A stretch of DNA of 62,707 bases, filler included, from Sphacelaria rigidula (lineage: Eukaryota), in NCBI GenBank assembly GCA_964200075.2. It is 9 parts of 9 records of this genome, joined end to end, with 100 filler letters (N's around TTAATTAATTAA, not from the genome) between each part and the next. Parts side by side here need not be neighbours in the genome. Positions count along the whole stretch, not along the records: positions 27,917 to 34,795 come from CAXNAA020017611.1; 8 more parts are not named here. The stretch is one strand, 5' to 3'. Within the stretch, counting starts at the first letter, position 1. Each line of letters opens with the position of its first letter. Below, piece after piece: positions 28 to 35,360 of this stretch. Under the pieces are notes generated by a model. It was not told where the DNA came from. It made no database searches and saw only the letters and a list, made by a program, of their open reading frames with translations. The position numbers were made by a program, and so were the translations under genes.

Positions 28-3000
28 TGATCACGATTGCCCGCTTCTTGCCCGGAGAGGAGGTGGCGAAGTTTGCCACCAGTGCGACTACCATGATTTC
101 CTTCGGTTTCGGCCTGTCCATCTTCGTGCTCGTGTAAGTTACACCTGCCCGCTCTTGACTCACCGTTAAACGTACGATAGGCCTCGTGGAATAGTTGACA
201 ATGCCATGACCTAGGGGTATCCCAACTACGGGTAGGTAGGTATCGGCATCGTTTTCAAATGGGTATGTAATGAGATCACGTGTCCGTCCGTCTGCGAGCG
301 CTCGGGTTCACACACGATGGTTGCGATGCACACCCTTGGAATGACACTCCTCGCATTCATTTTGATATTCCGTAGCGAATGACTGCGCATTGAACGGAGG
401 AAAAAGTAGTGTCTGCGGTTGTGTCCCTGAAGTACGATCCACTCGCCGCATGCAGTGCACATCTCATCGTTCGTCACGCCGTCGTGGGCGGGTGCTTGGT
501 ACTGTGTTCCGTCACCGTATTATGCAGCAAGGCCATTTGCGAGTCAGGTAGAGCGTGATGAGACGTTCCTTTCTCGGTTTTCTCGAAAGCTGCGGTGACC
601 ACGCCGCTGAAAGCTGATCTGCAAGCCCTCGCCGGGAGCTGTTTACTCATTCGTACCTCGTGATGGCCGATGGATACTGCTGCCCGCGTGCATACTACCG
701 ACGCTCGGCAGGCTCCAGCATCGGCCTGATGTGATACTTCCTCTGTTCCATAAGTAAAGGCACCTAATTTTTGTACGGGCCCTTAACGACGTCCAATAAT
801 TTCTTTTTCAATGAACTCTGCGGTGTTTTCTCGGTTGAGAAAATGTGTTGAAATTTACGGCTCGTGCTTGAACCATGCCGCCGAACGGCTGCAAAAACAG
901 TAGTCGGCCCAAAAATGGCCGTTTTTTGCCCTATTCCAAGGGGGGGGAAAGTGAAGAAAATAATCTTGATACTTTTAATTGCCCTCGTGCTTGCTGCCAG
1001 GAAGTCCCACGCAATTAAAAAAGAATCAAGCAAATAAAAACAACGCTTTTTTTCCCGTCGGAAAGGGGCAAAAAACGGCCATTTTGGGCCGACTACTTTT
1101 TTAGCAGCCGTTCGGCGGCATGGTTCAAGTGCGAGCTGAAACTTTCAACATATTTGCTTGACCCGAAAAACACCGTAGAGTTCATTGAAATAAATATGAA
1201 ACGATCGGACATCGTTAAGGGCCCGTGCAAATGTAGGTACCTTTACTTATGGGATAGAGAAAGTATTTCATTTTGTGAATACAGATATCGATATCTGGTG
1301 CATACGACAAAACTCCTGATGACAACGAAATTCCACTCTCGTCATACCCTGATTGTTGCTGTTGTATGGCACGTTCGTTTGGGCATTTTGCAGATACGTC
1401 CTGACTGAAGTGTCTGGCGCCAACCTCAACTCGGCTGTATCCCTTGGCCTTCTGATCGGCAGACGCATCCGCATCAAGCGTTTTGTCCTCTACTTGATCG
1501 CCCAGGTATTTCAGTCGCTCGCGCATCACGCACGATGAGCATCGTGTAAGTACATGGTAGGACGTATTTGGTTGGATGAGAATGAAGTGGTGTCCATGCC
1601 AGGAAATGGATGACAGAGCTCGCCGCCCCCTTCACCCGTGCAGAGGGGGGGGGGGGTGCGCTCTACTCGCCATCCTATTAGGATACCGGCCAGCCTAATC
1701 TTGCGAATCTTCTCTCAATCGTTTCTTGCCCCATGGGTCCGCCCGCCCGTGTGTGCCACGACGAAATCCCCTGTATGATCGTTGACAGGAGGCGAATGCC
1801 CCCCACCACCCCCTGCCCCCGTGGTCAAGTGGCCTTGTGACCACGGCACGCAGAATCATGAATCCGCACCCACACCCACCCCCACCCCCACCGCCAATCA
1901 TTCCTAGTACACCGGTTTCCTCACCTCCCACCACTCGATCGGGCTCTGTTTGCAGATACTTGGAGCTGTTGCTGGTGCGGGTCTGGCTACGACATTCCCG
2001 GACGATACAACGGGAGGTTTTAACTCGGTGGCGGACAACGTGTCGATGAGCTCGCGCGCGGTGGTTCGATACGTTGATTCCATAGTGCACGTGTCAGCTT
2101 TTTACACAGCTGCAGTGAACGATCCAGTTGTCGCCGCTAACACGACACGCCCGCAATAGTTGTTGCGTGCTTCGGGCGGCGCTGGTCGATGGAAGAGTAC
2201 ACCACTCAGCTTGTCAAGTATTGGCAGTAGCCGAGATGTATATCGATACTCATTTTTCCTCGCGGTGTCTCTTGTCCCTCAGGAACTGGATGCGTTCGGC
2301 GGTGAGGTGCTGTGCACATTCCTCTCGGTGACTACCGTGTTTGCGGCAACAGATGGAGTTATGGGCAACAAGCACGGCCACATCCGCACCCTCTTGCCCT
2401 TCGCCATCGGCATGGCCGTCTTGCTTTGTGAGTCTTTCGAAGGGTTGGTGGGCATCGTGCACAAGCGCGGAACAAGTGTAAACCCAAGTGTAAAACTTGT
2501 CTCGCGGGAATAGCCACCCTGCACATCACGCACACCCCTCCCATACCCCCCGTTTGAGGGTTGACATCGGTTGACAGCGACGCTGTGAAACACGCCACTC
2601 ACCACGTAAGCACGGCAGCCAAGTTACCGGCGATGTTTTTGATTGCATTTGTTTTTGCGGTAACCATGATGGTTGAGTATATCATTCGTGCGAGGTGGAG
2701 AACCTGAACTCCGCGCAAAGGGGATGATCGTATAGTACGCAGTGCTCATATGATGAGACATCCATGAGGCAGTGCGTGAGCCGGGGCTGTCTTATCACGG
2801 CACTTCGCGCTTGGTGATCGAGTGCGAGCGTGGTCCGGCAAGCACCCGGTGTGCTTCGTCCCGGCTTTGTGGGGATGCGGGGTCAAGGGTCTTGAGAACT
2901 GCGGTCTGGGATTCAATGAGTACATTCTCCCCTCCCTTCGTCCATTCCCACTCCCCCTCACCCCCTTCCCCCCCTTCCCCTTCGCGCATTACGCCTTGCT

Positions 3001-4220
3001 ACAAACGCCAGCCCACCTGGTGTTGATCCCCGTCGACGGATGCTCGATCAACCCCGCTCGTTCCTTCGGCACCTCCGTGACCAACAACAACTGGGAGAGC
3101 CACTGGTAAGACACTGCGACACTACGCTGGCCATCTCAATACCTATTTAGATGGGGCATTCTACGGGAATACTTAGGGTAGCGAACAAATCCGGTAGTTG
3201 GCCACCGACACCACTCACCTCCACCCACATTTTGCGCTTACAGTTGGAAACGGTGATGGCTCCTCGGTATACATTTGTGGCGGTGTATATTTCCATGAGG
3301 TACCATCCACACCACCACCCTTGCTGTGGCCCTCTTTGTGGGTTCCGTGTCGAGAGGAGGCTGTTGTAAGGCTAGCCGTTTTCACCGACCCGCAATGGGA
3401 GCAGTTCCGCCCCGTTTCTCACGTAGTTCTCGCGTGTGTTGGGTTGCTAGACCAACCGTCTCCGCGAGAGACTATTTTAGAGTTATTTCTCGGTGTCCCG
3501 AACAGTAGTAAGGGCGACGAGTCCTCGACAGAGTTATGACCATTTACCCCTTCTGTGAAGTGTAATGGTACCATCAGCCCTACCAGGTTTTGTTTTGTTT
3601 GAACGCTTTCGGGCCCTCTACGCATGTAACCCCCGACGGCTTTATCCGTAGGTCCGGCTGGCAGTAAAAGCGCTGCTGAGTGGTGTCGCAATAGGCCGCC
3701 CCCCCAGAAAAGTGGCTGGTTTGAGGACGCACATCATGCATGTTTACCATAATGGCAAAAGCCGAGAACACAGAGCAACTGAGAACTCCCTACGCTTCAG
3801 ATTGTTTTCGTCTAAGTCGCCCACATCGAGCGTTTCATAGGGTCTGGAACCAGATGCCATGCACTGCATGACCATTTTCCTCGTGACAGTTGGCGGCTGG
3901 TTTGATGGGGAGGGCGATCGCAGCATCACTGTGCTTCATAATTCCTCAAGCATAGTACCCTAACTCTACCTTCGCCCGAAAGCCAAGCATTTGAACGGCT
4001 TGATCTCAAAATCATATCCGACAAAGTGCATCCATCCCTTACCCCCGCCCCAACACGGCCCCATGACGTTTAATCGCCACTTTTGTCTTGTGTTTCCAGG
4101 GTATTTTGGGTCGGTCCTCTGGGAGGAGGGGCCCTAGCAGCCGTGGTCTGGGAAACTATCCTACGCCCCCCGCAGCCTGTCAAGACCGTCCCTATGTGTG
4201 ATGGATCTATGATGGCATGA
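28..4220 (+). CDS. Aquaporin (MIP family), 5'-truncated; exons 28-133, 1394-1505, 1956-2045, 2283-2427, 3012-3105, 4100-4220; may be a decaying paralog
   Basis: Phase-consistent splicing gives ...ISFGFGLSIFVLVYVLTEVSGANLNSAVSLG...YLIAQILGAVAGAGL...AFGGEVLCTF...IGMAVLLSHLVLIPVDGCSINPARSFG...HWVFWVGPLGGG...MMA*, matching MIP helices and both NPA loops. The exon-3 donor reads ATGAGC rather than GTGAGC. Confidence 0.93.
737..1263. mobile_element. Tc1/mariner-type (Stowaway-like) MITE in aquaporin intron
   Basis: TA at 735-736 and 1264-1265; termini CTTCCTCTGTTCCATAAGTAAAGG and CCTTTACTTATGGGATAGAGAAAG; imperfect inverted repeats of roughly 200 bp; non-coding. Confidence 0.85.
2548..2897 (-). repeat. 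Unclassified dispersed repeat family R1 (copy 1, intronic)
   Basis: Reverse-complement similarity to 20938-21280 and 51375-51852 (shared CATCCCCGTTGTGCGGAGTTGAGGTT-like and CTTACG..GTGAGTGGCGTGTTT motifs). Confidence 0.75.
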
Positions 4221-5563
4221 TCGATCTGTTAGTTATTCCTACTAGCGCACCTGTACATCTACAAACCAGGAACACACGAAAGCGCAGATGGTCTATCTCT
4301 CACGGCAGGTGCATGAAGGATACATCACCCCGGCGGGTGGTTCAAGAACTCAATCACCCAGCCGGCTGGTGGTTGTTTGTGCAATATGGATTGGAGATGA
4401 CTGAATTTGGGCGAATATATTTATGTTTGGAAGAAAGTATTTGGCCGGGAGAGAGATGGACGAACGACCGTCAGAGGGAGGGGGGGAGGAGGAGAAAGAA
4501 GTCATGGCAGAGCGGCAGGGACAGAGGCAGACAAGAATATTCAAGTTGCAGCAGTAACGGGGGAGATATGGATTGATCTCTGGGGACCAGGACTCGTTCC
4601 GGGAGACAAAAGTGTGCACACAAAATAAAAGGTAATTCTTGTAAGCATCCGTGAAAATGCAGCAATCCTGTCCACCCATTGACGTGTGCCGCTCTCTGCG
4701 GTGTGCAGTAAGGTAGTTTGGGCGTTTTGTTTGCCCGCAAATTTCTCAGAAGTGCTTTGCAGCCATTTTCTCTTCTGAATTTTCTATTATGGACCCGCAG
4801 TTGCGTGACTACCATTTATAACAGGAGCGATGGTCTCCCATTTATAACCGGAGCGATGGCCTCCTTCATTACTCGCAGTAACGACGATTTATTTGTTGCT
4901 GAAGAGCGTGAACAGCATACGTGCTGTCGTGTTTAACCCTGTTTCATATGTTTTCGTACTGCTGAATGTGGATGACGTTGGGGGGGGGAGGGGGTTGCTG
5001 TATAATTGTGCCACTCTTGTGCGTGATAGTGGGGCAGGGAGAGGGGCCAAGGGCAATCAACCCCACACCCTCGATGTGAATCCTGGTTGGATCACAACTC
5101 TCGTACGTACTGACATCCCTTATCCTTATGTCGGGGATTGGGGCTGCAACTCCAAATGTATCGTGCTGTATAGTGTGATGTATGGTGCTGTAGAATATGA
5201 TGCATTGTGCTGCATGATGTGATGGCAGTAAAGAGGCGTAGACATTAGCTAGCTGGTGTCGGGAGACTTTTTATATGAGTAGGTGAGAGGGAATCGCTGC
5301 TGAGAATTACATGCTAGCACTTGGTACACTCGGTACACAAGTTGGCTCTAGAAGCAGCACGTTTTTAATTTTGAGCAGTTTTGGTCGGTCTGGATGATGA
5401 GTATAATGTACGCAGTGACACATACCTTGGCCTGTGTCGCCGTTGTCTAGATGGGATCCCCGCGTGGAATCATGATGTCATCATAAATGAAGGCCGTGTT
5501 GTTGCAGTGACGAGCTCTTGTGAACGATTCGAGTGCTCATCATGTAAGAGATATGGGGGGTGA

Positions 5564-5632
5564 GGGCGTACTCATTTGTTGCTTGCCTTAGTCGTTTGAC
5601 CATTGACCACGCATCCCTTTCGAGACGGAGCA
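5564..5632 (-). mobile_element. Extreme 3' end of LINE family L-A
   Basis: Reverse complement of GCTCCGTCTCGAAAGGGATGCGTGGTCAATGGTCAAACGACTAAGGCAAGCAACAAATGAGTACGCCC, shared with copies at 20697, 31318, 44340 and 48905. Confidence 0.7.
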
Positions 5633-6235
5633 TGGGGGGTGAGGGGGAGCACCGGGAAGGGGGGGTGCTGAACATCAGAGGGAGGGTGGGGTCGATTGAA
5701 TACTAAGTACGACTGTTTTATGTCTTGTGGATAAGGTGTGAGATAGCGGCATGTCGGAGTAAGCCAACGGCACGTTGAAGTGACGATCTTGTGTAACCAG
5801 TCCGAGCATCGTTCATAATAGATGAATCGGGTCGGGGGGGGGGAGGGTGGAATGAACTCAGCGGAGGGGGAGGTGGAATGTACTCACGGGGAGAGGAAGG
5901 GCAGGCGGGCGGGCACACAACAGAAATTTACATGTTCTTGGCTTTTGGTTTAATCATTTCAAAAGTTGGTGGAGTGTTTGCCGCAACATTTCTTTATTGT
6001 GATTTTCGAGCTCGGGCCTCCCTCACGTACATTGAAGATACATGTATGACGCCGGGTTGCACCCGTCCGTTGAAGAGACAGAACGAAAAAAGACAACACA
6101 TGCATCGAAGGGACCGTGTGAACAGGGAGTCGTCCTTCTTGGATCATACTATGTTCATTCGGGACTGCCCTCGTTCTTACGAGTATGGAGGCTGTAGTGC
6201 TGTTCACTTGTTAAGAGCAAATTGTGCTTGATTTC

Positions 6236-7893: not shown

Positions 7894-8335
7894 ACACGGG
7901 ATCCTACACATTGGGGATGGATTTTTATTGGGGATGAGGATCCCGGAGAATTAAAATCTTCGTATCCACACCAAATCTTCAAAACATGTTTTCATTTCTT
8001 CACCTACTGATAGCTATGGACAACTGCTACACGCCGTAGAAATTTGGATTTCGATCACCGAAATGTTGGGATCCTAGGCGAAAAACCAACTTTCGGGAAT
8101 TCCGGATGTCCGAACGGACGTCAAAATGGTTCCGAAATTATTTTTTTCACCTGGGACCCCAACATCTCGGTTATCGAGATCCAAATATTTATGGCGTGTA
8201 GCAGTTGTCAATAGCTATCAGTAGGTGAAGAAATGAAACCATATTTCGAAGATTTGGTGTGGATACGAAGATTTCAATTCTCCGGGTTTCTCATCCCCAA
8301 TAAAAGATCCATCCTCAATTTGTAAGATCCCGTGT
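7894..8335. mobile_element. TA-flanked MITE with ~185-bp TIRs (Tc1/mariner-type)
   Basis: TA-ACACGGGATC...GATCCCGTGT-TA; long inverted arms (CTTCACCTACTGATAGCTAT / ATAGCTATCAGTAGGTGAAG). Confidence 0.88.
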
Positions 8336-8439
8336 TATTTGCCTATAATCTCTCTAAAAGATCATCCGGTCACATCTAGTTTAGATGCAGCACCTGGATA
8401 TTTAGATCTGGTAAATCTTAAAAAGAAAGAAGCGGCGAA

Positions 8440-8992
8440 ACAAGTGTCAAAACTCTGGAATACCGAACGTAATGAAGCCTTCGGAAAAATTAAGCAATTA
8501 ATGACCGAGGCACCCGTCCTTCAATTTCCAGACTTCACTAAATACTTGACGATATATACATGTCGATACGTCAGACCGAGGTGGGGGAGCGACGACGACG
8601 CGATCGTAACATACTTCAGTCAACGTTTCAGCGATGCTCAATCTCGCTACTCGCTCAGCATGAAAGGATGTTATGCCGTCGTACTCGCCATTCAGCATTT
8701 CAGACCTTTCCTATGGGGCCGTCACTTTACGTGTGTAACCGATTATGTCGCTCTTCGATATCTATATGCAACACAAGATACGAGCAAAATTTTGACCCGT
8801 TGGGCGATCTCATCGCAATTGTATGATTTCACGGTCAGACATGAACCGGGGAAACTTCATGTCATTCCGAACACCCTCTCACGGCTATTCGCTTTCGAAA
8901 AGCGACAAGAGGCTGAAATCGTGCCTTCCCTGCTCCCCGCCAGGTATTACAAAAACGATGACAGGATTTTTGTAAGCTCTATGGGACGTTGA
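8440..8992 (+). mobile_element. Degenerate Ty3/gypsy pol fragment (RT connection and RNase H)
   Basis: WNTERNEAFGKIKQLMTEAPVLQFPDF...YFSQRFSDAQSRYS...AVVLAIQHFRPFLWGRHFTCVTD...LTRWAI..QLYDFTVRHEPGKLHVIPNTLSR; several conserved residues decayed. Confidence 0.9.
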
Positions 8993-20045: not shown

Positions 20046-20644
20046 TTCATATTCCGGTAACCTTTTCTGCTGTCCGATACCAACTTTTGGTTCCTTCGCG
20101 ACCGCAGGTGCTACGCCCGGCATCGAAGATTATGGCCGACCAGGTTGCGGCTAACGTCGCCGAGAGAAGGGCCGCGGCATGGGTATTGGCTACAACGACC
20201 ACCAGGGTAGCGGTGAAGATGAGGGGAACCTCCCAGGATTTAGCATCCCTGAGGCTATGCGCGACGCCTTCAAATTCTGGCGCCCGCGTCCCTTGGGGAG
20301 GGGGGTCATACCCTTTCGTTACTTGCCTCAATCGTCAAAAAGTGTGCTCATTGACGGCTAAGGCAAGCAACGAAATAGTATGCCCCCTCTCCCCAAGGGG
20401 CGCAGGCGCCAGGATTTTGAGACGTCGCGCATGGCGTCAGGGGTGCTAAACCCTGGGGGGTTCCCCTCATCTTCAATGCTACCCTGGTGGTCGTTGTAGC
20501 CAACACCCATGCCGCGACCCTTCTCTCGGCGACGTCTGCTGCAACCTGGTCGGCCATAATCTTCGATGCCGGGCGTAGCACCTGCGGTCGCGAAGGGACC
20601 AAAAGTTGGTATCGGACGGCAGAAAAAGGGTACTGGAATATGAA
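20046..20644. repeat. Long imperfect palindrome, ~293-bp arms with a 12-nt spacer
   Basis: 20046-20338 is the reverse complement of 20351-20644 with scattered mismatches; spacer at 20339-20350. Confidence 0.95.
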
Positions 20645-20696
20645 CATCACACGATTAAGGCAAGCAACGAATGAGTACCCCCCCCCCCCGTAACTC

Positions 20697-20820
20697 AGGT
20701 GCTCCGTCTCGAAAGGGATGCGTGGTCAATGGTCAAATGACTTAGGCAAGCAACAAATGAGTACGACACCACCCCCCCCCACACAAGACACCCACAACAC
20801 ACCCCCCCCCCACCCCCCAC
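20697..20820 (+). mobile_element. LINE family L-A 3' end with C-rich tail
   Basis: GCTCCGTCTCGAAAGGGATGCGTGGTCAATGGTCAAATGACTTAGGCAAGCAACAAATGAGTACG followed by C/CA-rich tracts; a shorter copy lies at 20651-20690. Confidence 0.75.
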
Positions 20821-25267: not shown

Positions 25268-25722
25268 GCATACGACGACTGACGCACTCACAGAGGTGTC
25301 GGCTCTCTTTGACTCAGGGGCGGACATCCGTTTGACCTCGAGTACACATGATCTCACAGGGGAACGTGCGGTGAACTGGAACCGCCCATTCAGGAAAAAA
25401 AGGCAGCTGCGTACACCACCTGTGGGAACTCACCACTAGGAGCGGGAGTGCGGATAAAGAGGCACCAACGGATATAACGCTGAAGACGTCCTTCGTGTCC
25501 CCTACTACCTTGTCGGCTCCTGAGTAGCGGACGCTTCATTGTAACGAAACGTTGCATTTGACTCCAGGTCCACGAAGCATTGTAGCCGACTCGCCAAGGA
25601 CCGATCGAGAATCCCTAGCCCATAAAAAAGGATCCTTCGCGCTGTTCGCAACCGTCCGAGCGAAGGACAGCCGTCAGGCATCGGTACATGTATCATGTAC
25701 GAAATAGAAGCAGCACTTTACG

Positions 25723-27486
25723 TTGAAGGAATGGCACGACACCTTGGGCCATGTTGATTCAGCCGCCATCCAGCATTTGGTGAAACGTGGCCTCTTTGAA
25801 CTTGCCGACGCTTCGAACATGCTGTGCGTGGTCTACCGCAAGTGTGAGTCACTAACGCTTTCGTACGGGAGAGGAGGTCGTAGTCCGAGTCCCCTGGGAG
25901 AAGTGATTTACACACACCTGGAAGGGTCTCCCACCCTGATGCTATTGGTATGTTACTTTCAAGAGTTCGTGAACGAAAGCACACGCGGCAAGCGTGTCCG
26001 AGGGCTCAAGACGAAGGATGCAGCCGCGGGTGCAGCAGCCCACTACGCCGACGAAATGGCCCGGGAAGGTGAAGCGATAAAATGCAACAGCGGCGACGAC
26101 GCTGGTGAACTTGGAAGATTCGTCAAATTTCAACTTTTGCTGACGAATAAGGGAATCAGGTGGATGAGGTCACGGAATCGGATATCACAATCCAATGGGA
26201 TAGGTGAAAGGACACTTGAAGAATTCATGACAACAACACGACGTCAACTCGCCAGATCAGGAAGAGGAGAGGACTGCTAGTTCTTGGCTGTGGCGAATGC
26301 CGTTTTCAACACGGCAGGAATGCCCCACGAATATCTTTGGGAGGCAACACCATAGGGGCGGCTAATCGTGGGGCAGTTCACCTACGATCGTCTCCACATG
26401 TGTGGAACGGAATGTTTTGTGCACCAGCATCAGCGACAACGATAAGAATGTTGACATTTCTATCCGTACGACTGATGCCACGATTGCTCTCCCCAGAAAA
26501 GCGGCCGGGTTGATGAGGCAAAGTCTTCATGTATAGCGAAATGACAAAAGTTGACCACACTGAGTAGCTGGGAAGTCCCATGCCTGGGAAAGGTTCCGTC
26601 AATATCGACCATATGAGGGGCTTCGTGCAGTCTGAAAGCAGCTATCGTGCGCTGTATGGTCATCTTCTTTGTGGCAATTATGAGGCTGGTCTGCGCGGGG
26701 GGCTAACGCGACGTGACTCCTATGCAAAACGCGGGATAATGTTTGGGCATGACCGCCCATCGCCTCGTTGGTTCGTGTGGCTGAACCAGGAAAACAAGCT
26801 CATGAAGTCGTCACATATCACGTTCGAATGTGAAGCGAAGCTCCTGAACATTGCGGGGGAGCTGAAAACTGGCGAGTTGAGCGATGATGAGGGCGGACCG
26901 GGGACAGAAAGAAACACGGAGACTACGGTGTTGGTTTGGGTGGAAAACAAGAGGACCCGACCTTGTCAACGCGCTCCTCTCAGAAACATTGGACTGCGCA
27001 GGTCCAGCCGACTGACATGAAGACGTTGATCAAGCAACCTACATCAACGCTTCAAGAGTTCTCATGACAGTGACTCCGACCGGAAGAATTTCCTCGCTGT
27101 CCTACTTGAGAACGGTGACGAAACGGGAACGGTAGTGCATCTTCCACGATGGGACTTACAGGCGAGATTGGCGCTAAACCAGACGAATGTTTGACCATGA
27201 ACGAGCTCTACTACCACCCGATGCGGACGAGTGACGTCATGCAATGGAAGAAGAGCTGAGCGATCTTCGAAGGCAGGGAATTTTCCGGGTCGAGCAACCC
27301 CCGTTGAACGGACTACCACTCAAGACGCGCTTCGTGTTTAAAATCAAACGGAGTATAGACGAGAAAATCGAGCAACATAAGGCAAGTTTCGTTACAAGGG
27401 GCTTCACTCAACAATCACGTATGAATTTCCTTGAGACGTTCAGCTCAGTCATCGATTTCGATGTAATGCGTGTTGCGCGAGGCTGA
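25723..27486 (+). mobile_element. Degenerate Ty1/copia pol (GAG-pre-integrase, integrase, SH3-like region, RT start)
   Basis: WHDTLGHV; DDAGEL; SQSNGIGER; RGIMFGHD; MEEELSDLRRQGIF...KTRFVFKIKR...HKASFVTRGFTQQ..NFLETFS. Integrase precedes RT, the copia order; stops and frameshifts present. Confidence 0.93.
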
Positions 27487-28019
27487 TACGCCTGTTGGAA
27501 TATAATTGGCTATCGTGGCTTGTATATCACACACAACGTTCAACTGTCCAGTAGGCAGGAACAATCGGTTCAACTTGTGAACCCAGCTCCAACAAGAGAG
27601 CTCGCAGAGGCTGCACAGTGTTGGTTAAACACTTGTTTGTGCGAGAGGGAGGATGCGTAAACTTGCCGCTTCACCTGGGCATTACTCAAATCAAACACAT
27701 AAAACACTTGGTTCCTTATTAACGCAGAAACCAATAACAAGCTGATAGGCTTGCTTGAGGCGGGTCGCTTTGGAGAGTAAATAGCGTGGGGCTATTTCAC
27801 TCTGTCGATAAAACTCNNNNNNNNNNNNNNNNNNNNNNNNNNNNNNNNNNNNNNNNNNNNTTAATTAATTAANNNNNNNNNNNNNNNNNNNNNNNNNNNN
27901 NNNNNNNNNNNNNNNNCACTCGTACGCCGAGAAACAATCCAGTGTGCAGTGAACACATTCACCGCATCTGATGCATGTTTTTCTGCACGGTCCGATGGTG
28001 TCCCCCCCGTTACCGATAG

Positions 28020-31000
28020 CAGCTGGGTTTGAATTCTCTGTCGTTGGTGACGATGCGGCACTGGCGCAAGGCCTGCTTCTCCACTACACCGGAAGCAATG
28101 AAGGCCATTGCCTGGGCGTTTCAGACGTCGGACCCCGGTATCGACGCAAAATGTGTTTCGCTGACGTACCTGAAGAGCAAGGCTTACAGCGATCTACACG
28201 CCAAACCCGCAGCGCAATCGATCGCCGTCAATATGCTCGTAAGGTATGCACCGCCGCTGCATCCAGTCGATTGTTGTGATAATCTAGAGTTATCTTCCAT
28301 CAATTCGCCGCACCGAAGGATGACGAGAGTGTGTCATGTGGTACGTCCTGGTTGATAGACCGTCAGAACCAATTTATCCAAGGTGTAACCACACATACCC
28401 ACCACCCCAGCGCGAAGCAGTCTACTTTCAAAATTGAGGATGGATTTTGGCAGAGGACCAACCTCGGGAACCTTCATCACATCGAAAATGTTTCGAAATC
28501 AAAATATAAAAGCATTCTCCGGTTGGCATGCATGACCTCAGACATCGTAGCAAAACAGAGTATAACATGAACAGTTTTTTGCACCGGAATCGCTGGAGAA
28601 CGACAGCGTCCCGTATAAACGCCGGCGGTCGCGAATTGCAGATATCAAAAATATTAATTAATTAAAGATTGTTTGAGGATGGTTGGTTGGGATGGTTGGT
28701 TGAAGTTTGAACATAATTAAAACTGTATATAAAAATTTCTTATTAATTAAGAAAAGAATGTTTGAGGATGGATGATTGGGATGGTTGGTTAGATGGTTTG
28801 TTGAATTCTACTTTTTGAGACAATATCGACCGGTTTGAACGCCGGGGGTTGCGAATTGCAGATGACTGCTTTCGAGGATGAGCGAGGCCACATATGACAG
28901 GCGGAAAGTGCAGATGTGTGTTTACTTCGAATATATCGCGATGCTCATGAAAGATCCCAAGGGCGGTACCCAGATTACATTCATCCTCGATTTTCGACCG
29001 TGCCACGCCAGACATTCGAGGGCGAACAAGATGACACCCACACCGAAAGATTGGGATCGGATCACCAAAAACGCCGGCATCGCGCACAACCTGGTGGAGA
29101 GAATCGAGAGCGTGGTCCTTCGTCTTGCTTGGACGGACAGGTTTAAAGAGTGAGTGCCGTTAATCTGTAGCCCGGCCACCGCCCGAGGTAAGGCGCTCTG
29201 TCCATATTGAGACCATGTTAGAATGCGCCGCCGTGTATGTGACTATCTCTGCACACTAGTCGACCCGTCACGGACTGTGGTGCGACCTCTAATGTTTTCG
29301 ATTCCGATTTCTGCGAACAGTGGCGTGCACAGAATGATAAACGGCACGTACGGGTCAGAAGATTTCCAGCTGTTCGTGGGGGAATACATATCGTCCGTAG
29401 ACAAGACGATATCAGAGACAAAAGAAAGCCTGCCGGCCGAAGAACAGGAAGGCGAAGTCATGAAGGAATTCGAGGCGGTCTACAAGGGAAGACTTCCACG
29501 GCCGTTGGAGCTGGTGCGTTGCTCCCCGTCGGTATTTGACTTTATCGTAAGAAAGTGGAGACATATATTCGCTGTTGCGAGCTGATCGGTGACCGGCCTC
29601 GCTGCTCAGGCACGGAAGTCAACTGTATCTTTCCCGGTAACACTGGTCGAGGAGAGTAAAACACCACCACCGCCCACGTACATTTGCACTCCAGAGACGA
29701 AGCAGAGACGTGCTGCCGGTCGTCCTTCTGTTGTATCTTAGTTCATACTTGACACAACAGAGATACTGCCGTCACCCCCGATCGCAGATAACACAAAGAG
29801 GGACCCTCAAGTCTTGCAGCGAAACGTGGAGAAAAAAATGGAACGCGATAAACGACAAGACAGCGCGTTTAAAACTCGTGGGTAGCGGCGGCGAGGGAGA
29901 TGTGAACGACGCATCCGTTGGGGACGCCGACGGCGAGGGTGAGGAGGGCAGAGACCGACCAGCAGCGGGTAGTCGCGAGGGCAAAGTGTGCGAGTCGTGC
30001 AAACCCACCCTACACGTGAGGTGAGAGTGAAAATAGCGCACATGGAGTATCTAGTCGGAGGGCGGGCACCGAGGTACATACCCATCGATGAAGGCATTGC
30101 TCGCGAGACTGTCGATCGATTCGCCGCCGACATATATTCCTCTGTCCTCATTCCCGCAGGTACCGATGCACGCACTGCGGGGTTGCACACCATACGTTCT
30201 GCGACCTGCTCGCCCCTATCTCAGAAGATGCGACTCTGGCCGAGCGAAAACAGTGCCTTTGCATATCGTGCGAGGGCGACCCAGAACGCCGGAAGAGGAA
30301 GGAATCTCAGGCACCAGCCGGAAACGGCGTCACATCAAATAGCGGGAAGAAAGCGAGGAAGGCAAGCGTTCCCCGACCGCCCGCCGGCGCCACCATGGAA
30401 GAGCAAAGGTGCGATGATCCCAGATCCAGCCGAGCGTTTCCTCGTGTGAAAACAGTCGCCGATGAATCCATCTTTTCGGCACGTGTCTCTCAGTGGGTGT
30501 AGTTCGCCACATAACCCTTGCCTTCCCCCGCGGATACACCAACGCCAAAAACGACCGATCGGTTGGCAACTATGGCTGCGCCGCGTTCATACCTTCGGAG
30601 TACACCGTGAGAGTGTTACTACGTCAGGACGGGGGAGGGGAGGGGTGTGGCGGCGTAAGGCAGTACCGTAGGTCTTAATCAGACCCCAGCACTCGATACA
30701 TATTGTCATCTTCTATACTGTGTTTGTTACCACGCTTATAATACTTCCGGTTTGTTTGTGCCGCGATTCTTCGAATTTGACAATGTGCCGATGTAGCCCC
30801 CCCCCCCCCCCCCCCCCTCCCCAAGAGTTGCGCCCGTAACATAAACACAGCGCAGGTGAAGGCAATGAGATCGTACATTAAAGAGAGTCGGTGATAACTG
30901 CAGGCTAATAAAAATGAAAGCGGAAACATGTAATGATGACCCGTCGGGAAGGGTGCGTGTTTCGACGGTGCTTTGGTTGTCTGCCTCAGGGTCGCACTTC

Positions 31001-34000
31001 ACCCGCGTTCTTCCGTCGGATATCGATATGTACCGTGTGGAATGGCCTTTGTTTTTTCGCACAGGCGCAAGAATTCTACCACGCACGCGGTAAACCTACT
31101 TCGCAGAGGGTGTGAGCTCATCGATGGAGGCGACCCCCTGTCTGTGGCACGCCAGCCGAAGCTCATCCTCGTCTCCTTGGATGCCGAGAAAAGCATCCTG
31201 TCCCTAACAGACGACCACGTGAAGAGGTACTTCAAGCGGTTCGTGGGCAAACTGCTGAGCGCCTTGCATCCTTTGGGGACGATCGCATTTGCCGTGCCGC
31301 GGCCGTGGTTCCCGCATGGAAATCGAATCAGAGGTACCACCCCACACGCAATGCATAGAGGGGAAAATTCGGGATTTAAATCAAGGTGGTATGGCATTGT
31401 TTGGCACCTACAATTGTAGCGAGATAACGATCGCTATACTCGGAGATAGATGGTGGCCACAGAAGGTAAAGCAGGAAGGGGATAAGGTCTGTAAAACATC
31501 TCGTGTCATCTATGGAAGAAGCGTCATGGGTGCCGAAATGTTGGAGGTATTTATTCATCAGGTGTAGGAACGGAGCTCCGGCTGAGTGTCGCGCGGTCAA
31601 TGGTGAAACGGCGAAGGCGAGCAAAAAACGACTATGCGCCCCCCCCCCACCCCACCCCCTTCCGCCCTTCCGCCCGACCGCCCACCCCGGCCCGGCCCTC
31701 GCTGTCGCCGACCCGCCTGCACCACGTGACGGACGCCATCACTCAAGACCACACCATGGCGCTCGAAGAAGACCCTGTCCTCATCGAATATTCAAGCAAA
31801 CACGGGGGCTCCCGGAAGAGAGAAGAGAAATTCTATTTCTACCCGCATCACGAAGCCATCATGGTGGCCCACAAACGGTCAGAGCTGGAGGGGAAATGTT
31901 TCACGGTGAATCAGAGGGTCACATTTGAAGACCCCTACGGCAGCACAATCAGGGGGAAAATGGCAGACTGCTGGCAGAAGATCGGCGGTGGGCACACCGA
32001 GATGTTGACGTACAACCAAGGAGCTCCGGCCGGCGGCCCCGAAAATTCTTCCCCCCAGGGATTGTTGCGCACCTTCGGTTGGAGGTGATGGCGTGTCCGG
32101 TGGTTAATGGAAGGTATTACTTCACCCTTCGCGATGTTATATGTTCCATCATTAAACTGTTGGGTCTTGTTTTTTCTCCGTCGTACGAGCGGAGGGCAAC
32201 TCGTCACGCGACAAGCGGGTTGTTGTATGTACTGTTATATCAGGGTGCGTGTCACAAAAAGCGCTGATTCATTCGCTGAGCGACGAACCTCGCAATCGAC
32301 CACTCCGCGCGGATAGCGAGGTCTCACTTCTGCGTCGTTAATCCAGCGTCGTTGCCTCTTCATATCCATGAAGTTTCACCAACATGGGCGACGCTGTCCT
32401 TGGTGTTGGACCCGAGAGGACGCAACTGCTGGAGATCGCCCTCCAAGGTGGGCGCCCTATCGAGCTCTTTCTCTCAAATGCCAGTCTCTCCGGCGAGGTG
32501 CATGATCGCGAAGAGAAGACGTTCCACAAAGCATTCTCCTCTGGGCTCTTCAAGGTACAGAGAGCCACACCACGGCTAGGCGGTATACGTGCGAACATAA
32601 AAGTCGTGTTCCCCGATTGCCGTAGCGGCGGGTCTTCATGTAGGTGTCACAGGTTTTCGTTTGTGACAGGTGTCATCAACTCTCACCAATCTTTCCAACT
32701 GCCGCTGGGCTCGTTTTCACCCTCTATTTCTCGACAGCACGATATCGGCGGCGCAGTGTATGTGGGCCCATAGTTGCTCCCGTCGAAGCTTCCGGTCGAC
32801 ACGACCTCGCCGGCATTGCTGACTCCTGCCCCCGGTACTTCTGCTGAAGAGGTCATGAAGACCGCCATGCAGCCGTTCGAAGACATAGTGGAAGTGAGAG
32901 TGTTTCGGGCGAGACAAACGGTGTTCATCTCGAGTCATGTGTACTTGCTTCTTCGCCGTTTGAGGGTCGCACAGTGAGGACAACGTGGTGATCAGGCTAG
33001 CGGGCGCCAACGCACCAGTTTTGTTCGTTTCACATATTTCTTGGTGCATTTGCGAGCCAAATATACTTTCTCTGTACCATACAAGAGAACACCCTGTATT
33101 GTACGAGCCGTTCACCTTGCCCGGATTTTGGTCTGATCTTCGTATTAAAGTTTTGGTCAATTTTCGGTCAAAAGCATATTTTGCCTACATTTCGTGCTTG
33201 CTTGGTACGAATGAAAATAAATAATAAACAAACAAAACAAACAACATTCTACATAAACAATGAACGATAATTACAACCACGATCCAACCACTAGTTTTGC
33301 TTATTACCGTGGGCTGACCCCACAGCCTTCTTAAGTAACAAACGTTGCCGGTGAAACCAGCGCTGTTCGGCTCGACAACGGCCAAAACCTTATACGATTG
33401 ATTCGAAATTGGAGAATAAGTGCAATGCTTGGGTATATTACCTTCTAGTCGCGATACGCGGAGATTTCGAAGGCAACGGGTATGGCATGCCAAACAGAAT
33501 GCGTATCGCGCTTCGAATCCTTCGTTTGGGATCGTCCAGAGTGTGTATCACTGAGAATCTGAGGGGTGGGGTTTGTCGCGGGATCTCGTACCATCGTTTT
33601 CACACGTCTACAGTGACTGCTTGAAGTCTACTACACATTCTTGTTTCCTCACTTCGCGACGTGACTATGAACCGCGTCTCGCGCATTCACCTCCCCCGCG
33701 CGTGCAATCCAATTTGGTCAGTTTTCGAGCCTGGGTCAGGTCAACAGGCTGCACGCGATCGCGAAACAAGGCCAAGAGGTCGCCTATCCGGACATTCCCG
33801 TCTGGGGGAAGTATAAAATATACGACACTCCGGAGGACGCCCTTTAATATATCGACCATGTTGTAGAGGAGCAGTCTATCCACCTTATTTTGGTTGCTAC
33901 CAACGAACAACCAAAGCAAATGTTGGAGCCTGGCAAGGAGACGTGTAAAGCAAAGGCGGCGTTATACCTAAAAGTGGCGGAGACATGCCCATTTTTCTAC

Positions 34001-34336
34001 CTCAAGGGGGAAGCAACGGTAGATGATGAGGCCATTGATATAACGTCGCAGGTTCCCCACGTAGGTGGTAGAGACGCTTACGTTGCCGCTGTTGTAGTCA
34101 GCGAAGATGGAGATAAGCACGCTCTCATTGCTTGTGTACCACCACCTCGCGTGCGGAGCAGTATATTAGCGGCGAAGAAGCCTTTAGTCATTGGTGCCGG
34201 AGATCTTATTGTAGGGGGCCCTGGATTTAAGGAGAGGTGGCTTGGATTCACCCCGGCCGCTAGTCCCTGCGACGATGATGAGGAAGACGATGTAGATGAA
34301 GATGAAGACGCTGCGGATGACGGCGCGGGAGATTGA
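28020..34336 (+). pseudogene. Disrupted multi-exon gene: helical N-region, NLS-like/CxCxxC linker, beta-class amino-DNA-methyltransferase-like domain, SET-like domain, acidic tail (5' end outside contig)
   Basis: Exons ~28020-28243, 28862-29149, 29222-29513, 29761-30159, 30225-30408, 31065-~31317, ~31723-32084, 32347-32554, 32670-32893, 33722-34336, with GT-AG sites and mostly matching phases. In-frame stops at 28863, 32369 (or a 1-bp frameshift), 32771 and 33845; frameshifts near 29988 and 32692. Domain calls are by-eye motif alignments. Confidence 0.7.
31318..31690 (+). mobile_element. 5'-truncated LINE L-A insertion inside the MTase-like region
   Basis: Translates as ...GGMALFGTYNCSEITIAILGDRWWPQKVKQEGDKVCK...; ends GGTCAATGG..AAGGCGAGCAAAAAACGACTATGCG plus a C-rich tail; homologous to the 44340 and 48905 copies. 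Confidence 0.8.
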
Positions 34337-35360
34337 GGATGTAATGCATGTGGCTGCGGTTCTGAAAACGAGGGTCTAGATTCCTGGGGTTGGGTTGGGG
34401 TAGGGAGTCTGGAAGTTGGTGGGGGAGAGGGGAGGGAGGGGTTCATCTTCCTGTCGCGTTGAGCATGGTTTCACGGGGGTCCCGGTTGATGAGAATAGAC
34501 GGCGTCGACGCTTGTCGTTCGCAACCGATGGTATCACCGTGCGTAGAACACCTACCTGCTCGTGTTCTCGAATTCGTTGAAAGACAATGCACCATTCTGT
34601 GCGCCAGAGGGAAGGGTTCGAAGGGGAGTATCCTAGTCGTTTCCGTGCCGGAATCTTGTGGCCTATCCATGTTGCGTTGAAACCGGCTTTTTGATTGAGG
34701 GGGGGAAACACAAACCCGCAGCTGATCGATTCCAAGACACGAACATTGCCCGTCTTAGTCGTACCTGATAGACGCCCCCCCCCCCCCCCCCACCCNNNNN
34801 NNNNNNNNNNNNNNNNNNNNNNNNNNNNNNNNNNNNNNNTTAATTAATTAANNNNNNNNNNNNNNNNNNNNNNNNNNNNNNNNNNNNNNNNNNNNTTCTG
34901 GCCATTTTTCGTACCTTTCTTGTCCGAAAAACGAGAAGGTAAACTTTTTCTAGGCCATTGCCCTCTATTTGTTTCTTCATTTATTTCGTTTTTTTAGGGC
35001 AGTTTTGAGGAGAAATGAACACTGCTCTCCGGCCTTATCTCAATTGTTTAGCTCAATTTTTAGAGTTGTGATTTGAAACTTAGGATGAAGGACCGCAGAG
35101 GTATGCTGAATGAAAAAAATGGGCCTTCGTTTTTGTTGGGGGGGAAAGGTTCGGACGTTCTCGTAAAAATATGGTCGTTCCCACGCTAAAACGCCCTACT
35201 AAACTAGTGAAAAATAAGTGAGTATTAACCTGACCCATTTGTTTGGTTCATTATCCCCTAGCGAGGTCCCACACAAAGTTTCGATACACAAACATCAAAC
35301 GTGGGCCGGTAAGTGGCCTGCAAAATACTGCTCTTAATTTTCACCGACCCCGATACTAAA

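Follow-up and report, generated by a model that had tools for sequence, protein, structure and literature searches.

A repeated brown-algal gene that may combine a PHD-type finger with a non-catalytic relative of beta-class DNA amino-methyltransferases

A stretch of 62,707 nucleotides from Sphacelaria rigidula (GenBank assembly GCA_964200075.2), referred to here as the 62.7-kb window, contains on its plus strand an interval, 31065-32554, that raises the question of what becomes of a beta-class DNA methyltransferase (MTase) whose two catalytic motifs have been replaced. The original prediction for this interval was of a selected pseudo-enzyme, present here in a copy that had since decayed. Our analysis favors, with a probability of about 0.55, the reading that the interval belongs to a repeated, expressed gene encoding a PHD-type finger and a dead module derived from the PF01555 (N6_N4_Mtase) family, probably as an accessory gene of a transposon.

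Three exons in a row, A, B and C, of one larger gene make up the flagged interval. Contigs of four public runs, of which X1-X3 are RNA-like and X5 is DNA-like, were mapped onto positions 27917-34795 (6879 bases). The X1-X3 contigs skip nine segments: 28244-29011, 29150-29320, 29514-29787, 30021-30159, 30409-31064, 31334-31732, 32085-32373, 32555-32737 and 32894-33721. Each of the nine splice joints was found in two or three of the three RNA-like runs (two for joint 32891>33720, which leads into the last exon) and in none of the X5 contigs, and the introns are covered by X5. The resulting gene has at least ten exons at 28023-34336 on the plus strand (Table 1), and one X3 contig of 1021 nt joins 29872-30018, 30158-30406, 31063-31332 and 31732-32086. 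The ends of the flagged interval coincide exactly with exon boundaries, the start at 31065 following from joint 30406>31063 and the end at 32554 from joint 32552>32736, with the cut at +2 in both cases. The gene itself is far larger than the interval, includes a PHD-type finger and exists in many copies. Eight of the nine introns in the exon model are GT..AG, three of these boundaries requiring a one-letter difference between copies. The intron at 32085-32373 is canonical given one such letter, and that at 31334-31732 is GT..GG in the window copy, with an in-phase AG at 31746-47, 15 bases downstream. A database protein, P0001, likewise spans the spliced A-B junction.

Once spliced, the window copy reads in a single frame of 868 codons from 28023 to a stop at 34334 with two internal stops, and the frame is open across 623 codons and eight introns. 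In the RNA-like contigs 30 extra in-frame letters precede 28023, indicating at least one upstream exon; a search of the window allowing up to six mismatches did not find these letters, which could lie in an N block or outside the window. One N block, 27817-27916, directly precedes the first visible exon and could conceal some of the gene. The introns also alter how the original prediction is to be read: the peptide stretches that it quoted are all in the window, distributed over three different plus-strand frames, and the few stops that it took for decay lie in the introns 31334-31732 and 32085-32373, both of which are spliced out in all three RNA-like runs.

The family protein comprises about 870 residues plus an unseen N-terminus. 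In order, it contains about 190 residues without a family match, an acidic linker, a C4HC3 pattern, a basic linker, a domain of about 280 residues that resembles MTases and a C-terminal remainder of about 245 residues without a match, with an acidic tail at the end. The C4HC3 pattern, C-x2-C-x9-C-x2-C-x4-H-x2-C-x19-C-x2-C, has PHD spacing, and its assignment as PHD-type comes from this pattern alone. PHD fingers usually have a Trp before the last Cys pair, which is absent here. Pfam returned nothing relevant at E<=10 for any of the ten exon pieces, and the C-terminal open reading frame (ORF) gave no usable ESM Atlas match, nothing in Pfam and an AlphaFold2 (AF2) predicted local distance difference test (pLDDT) score of 32.

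Evidence on the origin of the 280-residue domain came mainly from profile-profile comparison of the spliced domain with PF01555 sequences by hhalign, alongside a custom hidden Markov model (HMM) of 13 PF01555 members (E. coli YhdJ and 12 phage enzymes); curated Pfam profiles were run on the separate exon and ORF pieces. With its exon-B homologues, the spliced domain matched at P=3.5e-4, and adding the exon-A homologue P0017 gave P=1.7e-5, a probability of 78% and a score of 43.0 over 192 columns. The match is colinear (query 2-217 against YhdJ 12-219), and all 13 template masters gave probabilities of 45-85% and P values of 6e-6 to 2e-4. The observed score was reached by no column shuffle (0/200) and no block shuffle (0/200 and 0/150, maximum 26.9 against 43.0), that is, by none of 550 shuffles in all. 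Reversing the template reduced the score to 13.1, and re-ordering it with motif I first, in circular fashion, gave 31.1 against the native 43.0. Among the six possible exon orders the native A-B-C scored best (43.0), B-C-A scored 34.5 and the others at most 23.5. Most of the signal is carried by exons B and C; the C-terminal block alone scored 31.1 (P=2.3e-4), and exon A alone was not significant against the MTase profile (P=0.078). On the strength of these controls, namely shuffles, reversal, re-ordering and exon orders, the likeness to beta-class enzymes appears real and colinear but modest, at the profile-profile level only.

The alignment follows the permuted block order IV-VIII, target-recognition region, X and I, so that the beta-class motif order named in the original prediction holds. 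In the MTase-like domain the permuted strand order is preserved together with 'RVLKPGG', 'hExilvfxK', 'HPxxFPxxL' and 'TNxGDxVL' elements, and both local matches of the custom HMM coincide with the 'hExilvfxK' and 'PxxL...GDxVL' blocks, in colinear positions. Compared with the window copy, the family consensus, GGPRCAFPxxxLxxLVNR, is closer to the MTase pattern HPxxFPxxLxxRLV. Taken together, descent of the domain from a beta-class (PF01555, N6/N4) DNA amino-methyltransferase is likely.

Both catalytic motifs are missing. Motif IV, (D/N/S)PP(Y/F/W), is absent in both possible registers of the window copy, where ARQPK (by hhalign) or SLDAEK (in the register originally proposed) stands under DPPY; P0017, at 70% identity, has KRSPK or SIDAEK there, neither of the DPPY type. 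The motif I that binds S-adenosylmethionine (SAM), VLDPFxGSGTT or FxGxG, is absent as well, and VLGVGPERT stands in its place, with VL and one G-x-G as remnants and with 'TNxGDxVL' well kept ahead of it. The wholesale replacement of DPPY and FxGxG reported in the original prediction is therefore confirmed. Its pairing of ADCW with xDVW fared less well, since ADCW is present but the W occurs in only four of nine family rows. Elsewhere in the window we found neither an MTase-like ORF (best E=1.1 among 1419 fragments) nor a convincing DPPY context. Because the catalytic motifs are absent, the protein probably binds chromatin or DNA without methylating it, and for the domain itself we put the chances of a non-catalytic binding function at about even.

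A phmmer search with exon B over 1.84 billion representatives gave 13 hits, of which nine (P0001-4, 7-9, 11 and 12), exon-sized ORFs of 48-163 amino acids, were taken as family members. The remaining four were dropped as spurious bacterial repeat proteins, three being YadA-type, beta-helix and similar by Pfam and the other, P0010, plainly repetitive. An alignment of the window sequence with eight homologues (A1), which left out the 48-residue P0009 and the cluster members P0014-16, spans 27-94% identity to the window and has nine invariant columns. Seven of its nine rows, at 27-60% identity to the window, finish at the same exon boundary, and the exon-B homologues span several clusters. Because these homologues have diverged yet share invariant columns and an exon end, the domain has, to judge from the alignment, been constrained at the protein level in several lineages.

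Exon A yielded only near relatives, including P0017, which is 70% identical, has the same exon end and keeps S-I-D-A-E-K-S. Exon C had no near homologue among the proteins searched, and no homologous protein of greater length was found for exon B. Searching metagenome contigs with P0004 gave two loci that matched over 18 residues only, with no further exon matches, and searching viral contigs with P0003 and P0011 gave no loci. The original prediction had allowed either that close homologues might retain DPPY and FxGxG, which would mean simple decay, or that no MTase profile might match at all. The 70% relative P0017 keeps a non-DPPY sequence; Pfam is indeed blank, but the profile-profile match at P=1.7e-5 is not. 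The nearest named relatives of the gene, P0001 and P0018, are both labelled Sphacelaria rigidula; they are partial 'unnamed protein products' and 94-96% identical to it. The public paralogue gene models are partial or chimeric and no full-length model turned up; the gene family is poorly annotated. The P0018 model fuses exons A and C in the wrong frame, and P0009 begins in another frame at the border of exon A and the intron.

The gene is highly repeated. Over the 6879 bases, introns included, 7902 X5 contigs matched at 90-100% identity and covered 30 of 30 depth bins, with 1663 contigs at >=99%, 2979 at 95-99% and 3260 at 90-95%. Introns and flanks have thus been amplified together to a very high copy number, and one copy lies within the 62.7-kb window. 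The family's consensus frame reaches 34336, and this copy is a member in decay, because its private stops at 32771 and 33845 read GAG and CAA in other copies. At the first, a TAG in the window, G accounts for the whole depth of each run except X5, where it accounts for nearly all; at the second, a TAA, the change 33845 T>C is carried by practically the entire depth of the same four runs. Both codons lie outside the flagged interval. Among the best 40 of 457 rows, which are not an unbiased sample, there are 21 exonic differences, comprising 15 missense, two nonsense and four synonymous changes. The lesions of the window copy are thus two private nonsense codons, one GT..GG intron and mostly non-synonymous private changes. 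Decay of this copy, as originally proposed, is borne out by the private TAG and TAA but not by the stops that first suggested it. At 33843-33918 other copies replace about 74 bases with a CCCTAA-type (telomere-like) repeat plus other letters; because the replacement is found in both X2 (RNA-like) and X5 (DNA-like), it represents structural variation among copies, not an intron.

Copy number that includes introns, transcription, a chromatin-type domain beside an MTase module and precedents in other algae together suggest a gene that is transposon-borne or at least repeat-amplified, and we consider it somewhat probable that it is an accessory gene of a high-copy transposon. Transcribed accessory genes are part of the giant DNA transposons of Ectocarpus, intron-containing models are among the curated transposon genes there, and one accessory protein, that of Sola1-1_Ec32, combines ParB with an N4/N6 DNA MTase (PMC12477816). 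Four supplementary files of that report have no mention of PHD, methyltransferase, methylase or accessory. In red algae (Bostrychia/Chondrus), the Plavaka accessory gene PAG2 is described as PF01555 plus SET (10.1101/2025.02.11.637652). Dead MTase modules are described by Iyer et al. (PMC4738411) for the MT domain of the DIRS1 retrotransposon and for METTL14/Kar4. A 2026 preprint on retrotransposon-borne Dam-type MTases deals with another MTase family (10.64898/2026.05.21.726589).

A number of results weigh against the favored reading, and those that concern the domain bear equally on whether it derives from an MTase at all. Pfam found no family on any of the three ORF pieces, PF01555 included, and no MTase on eight homologues. 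The custom HMM scored the spliced domain at -1.5 bits (E=0.08) and, in hmmsearch, did not score single homologues above shuffles. The hhalign support is at best a 78% probability from a 13-sequence template, and its N-terminal block alone is marginal (23.1, P=0.012). A PDB profile search with A1 found no MTase, its best match being an unrelated protein at E=0.75; tblastn of exons B and C against phages returned 4 and 27 records, all at E>=4 and none an MTase; and the ESM Atlas scores for exon B (<=0.81) are noise. An AF2 model of exon B alone, made with A1, had a pLDDT of 42 and two strands, giving no support for the fold. Motif I loss is seen only in the window copy and near-identical paralogues, and motif IV loss is common to the window copy and the 70% relative, the A and C exons of distant members not having been recovered. 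On the side of expression, the RNA nature of X1-X3 is an automatic guess with no record annotation, and the contigs of these runs differ by about 3% from the window copy; expression is therefore demonstrated for the family and not for this copy.

The blank Pfam and PDB searches and the weak HMM score, together with P=0.15 for A1 alone against the MTase profile and the fact that one 24-column block gives most of the hhalign score (31.1 of 43.0), could mean that the domain is a chance or convergent alpha/beta domain in a repeated PHD-finger gene. We regard this as unlikely, because the match is colinear over 192 columns (P=1.7e-5), is found with all 13 masters and is reached by none of the 550 shuffles, because native exon and template order score best, and because the family consensus lies nearer to the MTase pattern. 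That the domain is instead an active MTase with non-canonical motifs, in which the G-x-G remnant of LGVGP binds SAM and other residues catalyze, is highly improbable: a G-V-G does occupy the place of the SAM loop behind a preserved 'TNxGDxVL', and conservation across the family shows selection on the domain, but there is no (D/N/S)PP(Y/F/W) in either register or in the 70% homologue, and the Asp and Phe of VLDPF and the GSGTT are lost. To our knowledge, no active MTase lacks the DPPY-type loop and the VLDPF/GSGTT features. The lesions listed above would fit a pseudogene produced by simple decay of a recently active MTase, an account we find barely credible given that the stops within the interval are in introns, that the motif-less sequence is common to paralogues at 94-96% and to a relative at 70% identity, and that exon B is conserved down to 29% identity in a frame open over 623 codons. 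The same three lines (exon-B conservation, the 70% relative and the open frame) uphold the original prediction of a selected pseudo-enzyme insofar as the motif-less state is not fresh decay of one copy, but do not extend to motif loss in distant homologues.

Transposon carriage rests on copy number and precedent, because no transposase, terminal repeats or element ends were found in the window. Among the 217 window ORFs of >=85 amino acids no transposase domain was found, a search limited by small exons and N blocks, and no convincing inverted or direct terminal repeats or element ends flank the gene in the window. These absences also weigh against the favored reading. They would suit a lineage-specific host family of chromatin regulators that spread by segmental or tandem duplication and is no transposon cargo, as would the single copy in the window, the lack of a terminal inverted repeat or long terminal repeat (LTR) around the gene, its many introns with ordinary splice sites and the presence of homologues in several other clusters. 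Such an origin nevertheless seems doubtful. The 7902 contigs, at 90-99% over exons and introns, go far beyond ordinary gene families, the copy sits among other repeats and is decaying, public models are only partial or chimeric, and the Ectocarpus report documents giant algal transposons whose accessory genes have introns (PMC12477816).

The beta-class DNA amino-methyltransferases include M.PvuII and M.RsrI. The domain described here has the block order of PF01555 (motif IV region, 'RVLKPGG', 'IIWxK', 'hExilvfxK', 'HPxxFPxxL', 'TNxGDxVL' and 'GRxfIGxE'); its blocks are similarly spaced, and it is likewise about 250-280 residues long. In contrast to PF01555 enzymes, it lacks the DPPY-type loop and FxGxG/GSGTT, has Gly in place of the His of 'HP' and falls under every curated profile threshold. 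The gene is moreover eukaryotic and interrupted by introns, and it joins the domain to a PHD-type finger and to further regions without a family match. The PF01555 accessory proteins of algal transposons are similar in having an algal host, a high-copy element and a transcribed gene, and in linking a beta-class MTase module with domains that target chromatin or DNA; they differ in that they are recognized as PF01555 by Pfam/InterPro and are presumed active, and in that they carry ParB or SET where the gene described here has a PHD-type finger. This comparison is one of descriptions only.

The catalytically dead MTase modules also include DNMT3L and ciliate MTA9. With such modules the domain would share an MTase fold that selection has kept although catalytic or SAM-binding residues were lost, and the DIRS1 MT domain is likewise transposon-borne. 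These modules belong to other MTase lineages (PCIF1-like, MT-A70 and C5). Furthermore, METTL14 and DNMT3L have a known partner enzyme, whereas the gene described here has none known, and the DIRS1 domain is part of a retroelement polyprotein, whereas here the domain is spliced together with a PHD-type finger.

In the favored reading, the MTase-like domain would no longer methylate and would act as a DNA- or partner-binding module, the PHD finger would bring it to chromatin, and the protein would be an accessory factor of a high-copy, probably giant, DNA transposon. A more speculative extension, which we consider quite unlikely, is that a mobile element of a brown alga brings along a chromatin adaptor of its own, in which the PHD reads histone tails and the dead module grips DNA, perhaps the element's own repeats. 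Such a protein might protect the element against silencing, direct where it inserts or, as a non-catalytic subunit, activate or target a separate adenine or N4-cytosine MTase. The lineage in which this would happen is generally regarded as lacking cytosine DNA methylation. If the adaptor existed, the PF01555 lineage would have its first transposon-encoded pseudo-methyltransferase.

That giant algal transposons carry PF01555 MTase genes has come to light only recently. A conserved, expressed and very abundant relative that lacks both motifs and has a PHD-type finger suggests that what some elements use is something about the fold other than catalysis, for example its binding to DNA or to a partner. 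It also provides a case in which to study the origin of pseudo-methyltransferases beyond the METTL14 and DNMT3L paradigms. The locus also illustrates that introns should be considered before decay is inferred from frame breaks in eukaryotic DNA, and that repeat-borne genes of this kind are poorly modelled, only partial or chimeric models having been found.

Table 1. Positions of the gene and of other features in the 62.7-kb window.
Feature	Position	Strand	Evidence or remark
First visible coding exon	28023..28243	+	Acceptor CAG 28020-22; joint 28241>29010 in X1-X3
N-terminal-region exon, no known fold	29012..29149	+	Joints 28241>29010 and 29150>29322, 3/3 RNA-like runs
N-terminal-region exon	29321..29513	+	Joints 29150>29322 (3/3 runs) and 29512>29787 (2/3 runs)
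Exon with acidic linker and first half of PHD-type finger	29788..30020	+	1021-nt X3 contig
PHD-type C4HC3 zinc-finger pattern	29989..30271	+	Spliced translation; interrupted by intron 30021-30159
Exon with second finger half and basic linker	30160..30408	+	Joints 30018>30158 and 30406>31063, 3/3 runs
Exon A, MTase-like domain	31065..31333	+	hhalign; P0017 with same exon end
Exon A, degenerate motif-IV region (ARQPK / LILVSLDAEKS)	31147-31194	+	
Exon A, 'RVLKPGG'-like strand	31252-31296	+	
Intron A/B	31334..31732	+	Joint 31332>31732, 3/3 RNA-like runs
Exon B	31733..32084	+	Eight A1 homologues at 29-94% identity, exon-sized ones at 29-61% with the same exon end; highest-confidence part of hhalign match
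Exon B, 'IIWxK'-like and 'hExilvfxK'-like strands, followed by variable middle	31777-31875	+	
Exon B, 'HPxxFPxxL'-like helix	32032-32082	+	
Intron B/C, GT..AG	32085..32373	+	Joint 32085>32375, 3/3 RNA-like runs, 0 X5 contigs
Exon C	32374..32554	+	hhalign C-terminal block alone, P=2.3e-4
Exon C, 'TNxGDxVL' kept; degenerate motif I VLGVGPERT	within 32375-32425	+	
Exon C, 'GRxxIxxF'	32447-32470	+	
Exon with private premature TAG 32771-32773	32738..32893	+	Depth in four runs
Last exon, with private TAA 33845-33847, C-terminal region, acidic tail and terminal stop 34334-34336	33722..34336	+	
G6PD exons (G6PD_N, G6PD_C)	42016-47686	-	Pfam
Aquaporin/MIP exons	2160-3106	+	Pfam
Ty3-type reverse transcriptase (RT)-RNase H fragment	8237-8989	+	Pfam, E=1e-17
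Gag-pre-integrase, weak match	25708-26277	+	E=0.0013
Short dispersed repeat, C-run end	31383-31659; 49166-48888 (-); 44339-44473		
Same dispersed repeat, short form	20354-20392; 20651-20689; 20737-20775; 31608-31646		
Same dispersed repeat, inverted copy	5555-5647		

The window as a whole, with a GC content of 42-56%, behaves as eukaryotic DNA, as indicated by its few long ORFs (four of >=200 amino acids), the absence of tRNA and Rfam families throughout its 62.7 kb, and its G6PD, MIP and Ty3-type RNase H exons. The G6PD and MIP exons belong to ordinary-looking host genes on either side of the repeat-rich middle of the window, and the RT-RNase H fragment and the gag-pre-integrase match, both upstream of the gene in the window, are what is left of LTR retrotransposons. 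N blocks (44 + 12 letters + 44) recur about every 6979 bases over 6880-55830. The dispersed repeat at 31383-31659, which resembles a short interspersed element or a miniature inverted-repeat transposable element, is nested in the intron between exons A and B, and the depth maximum of X5 is the bin that contains it, 31367-31596. Finally, a near-perfect hairpin has arms at 20063-20338 and 20351-20626, each of 276 nt, that are 90% complementary and 12 nt apart.

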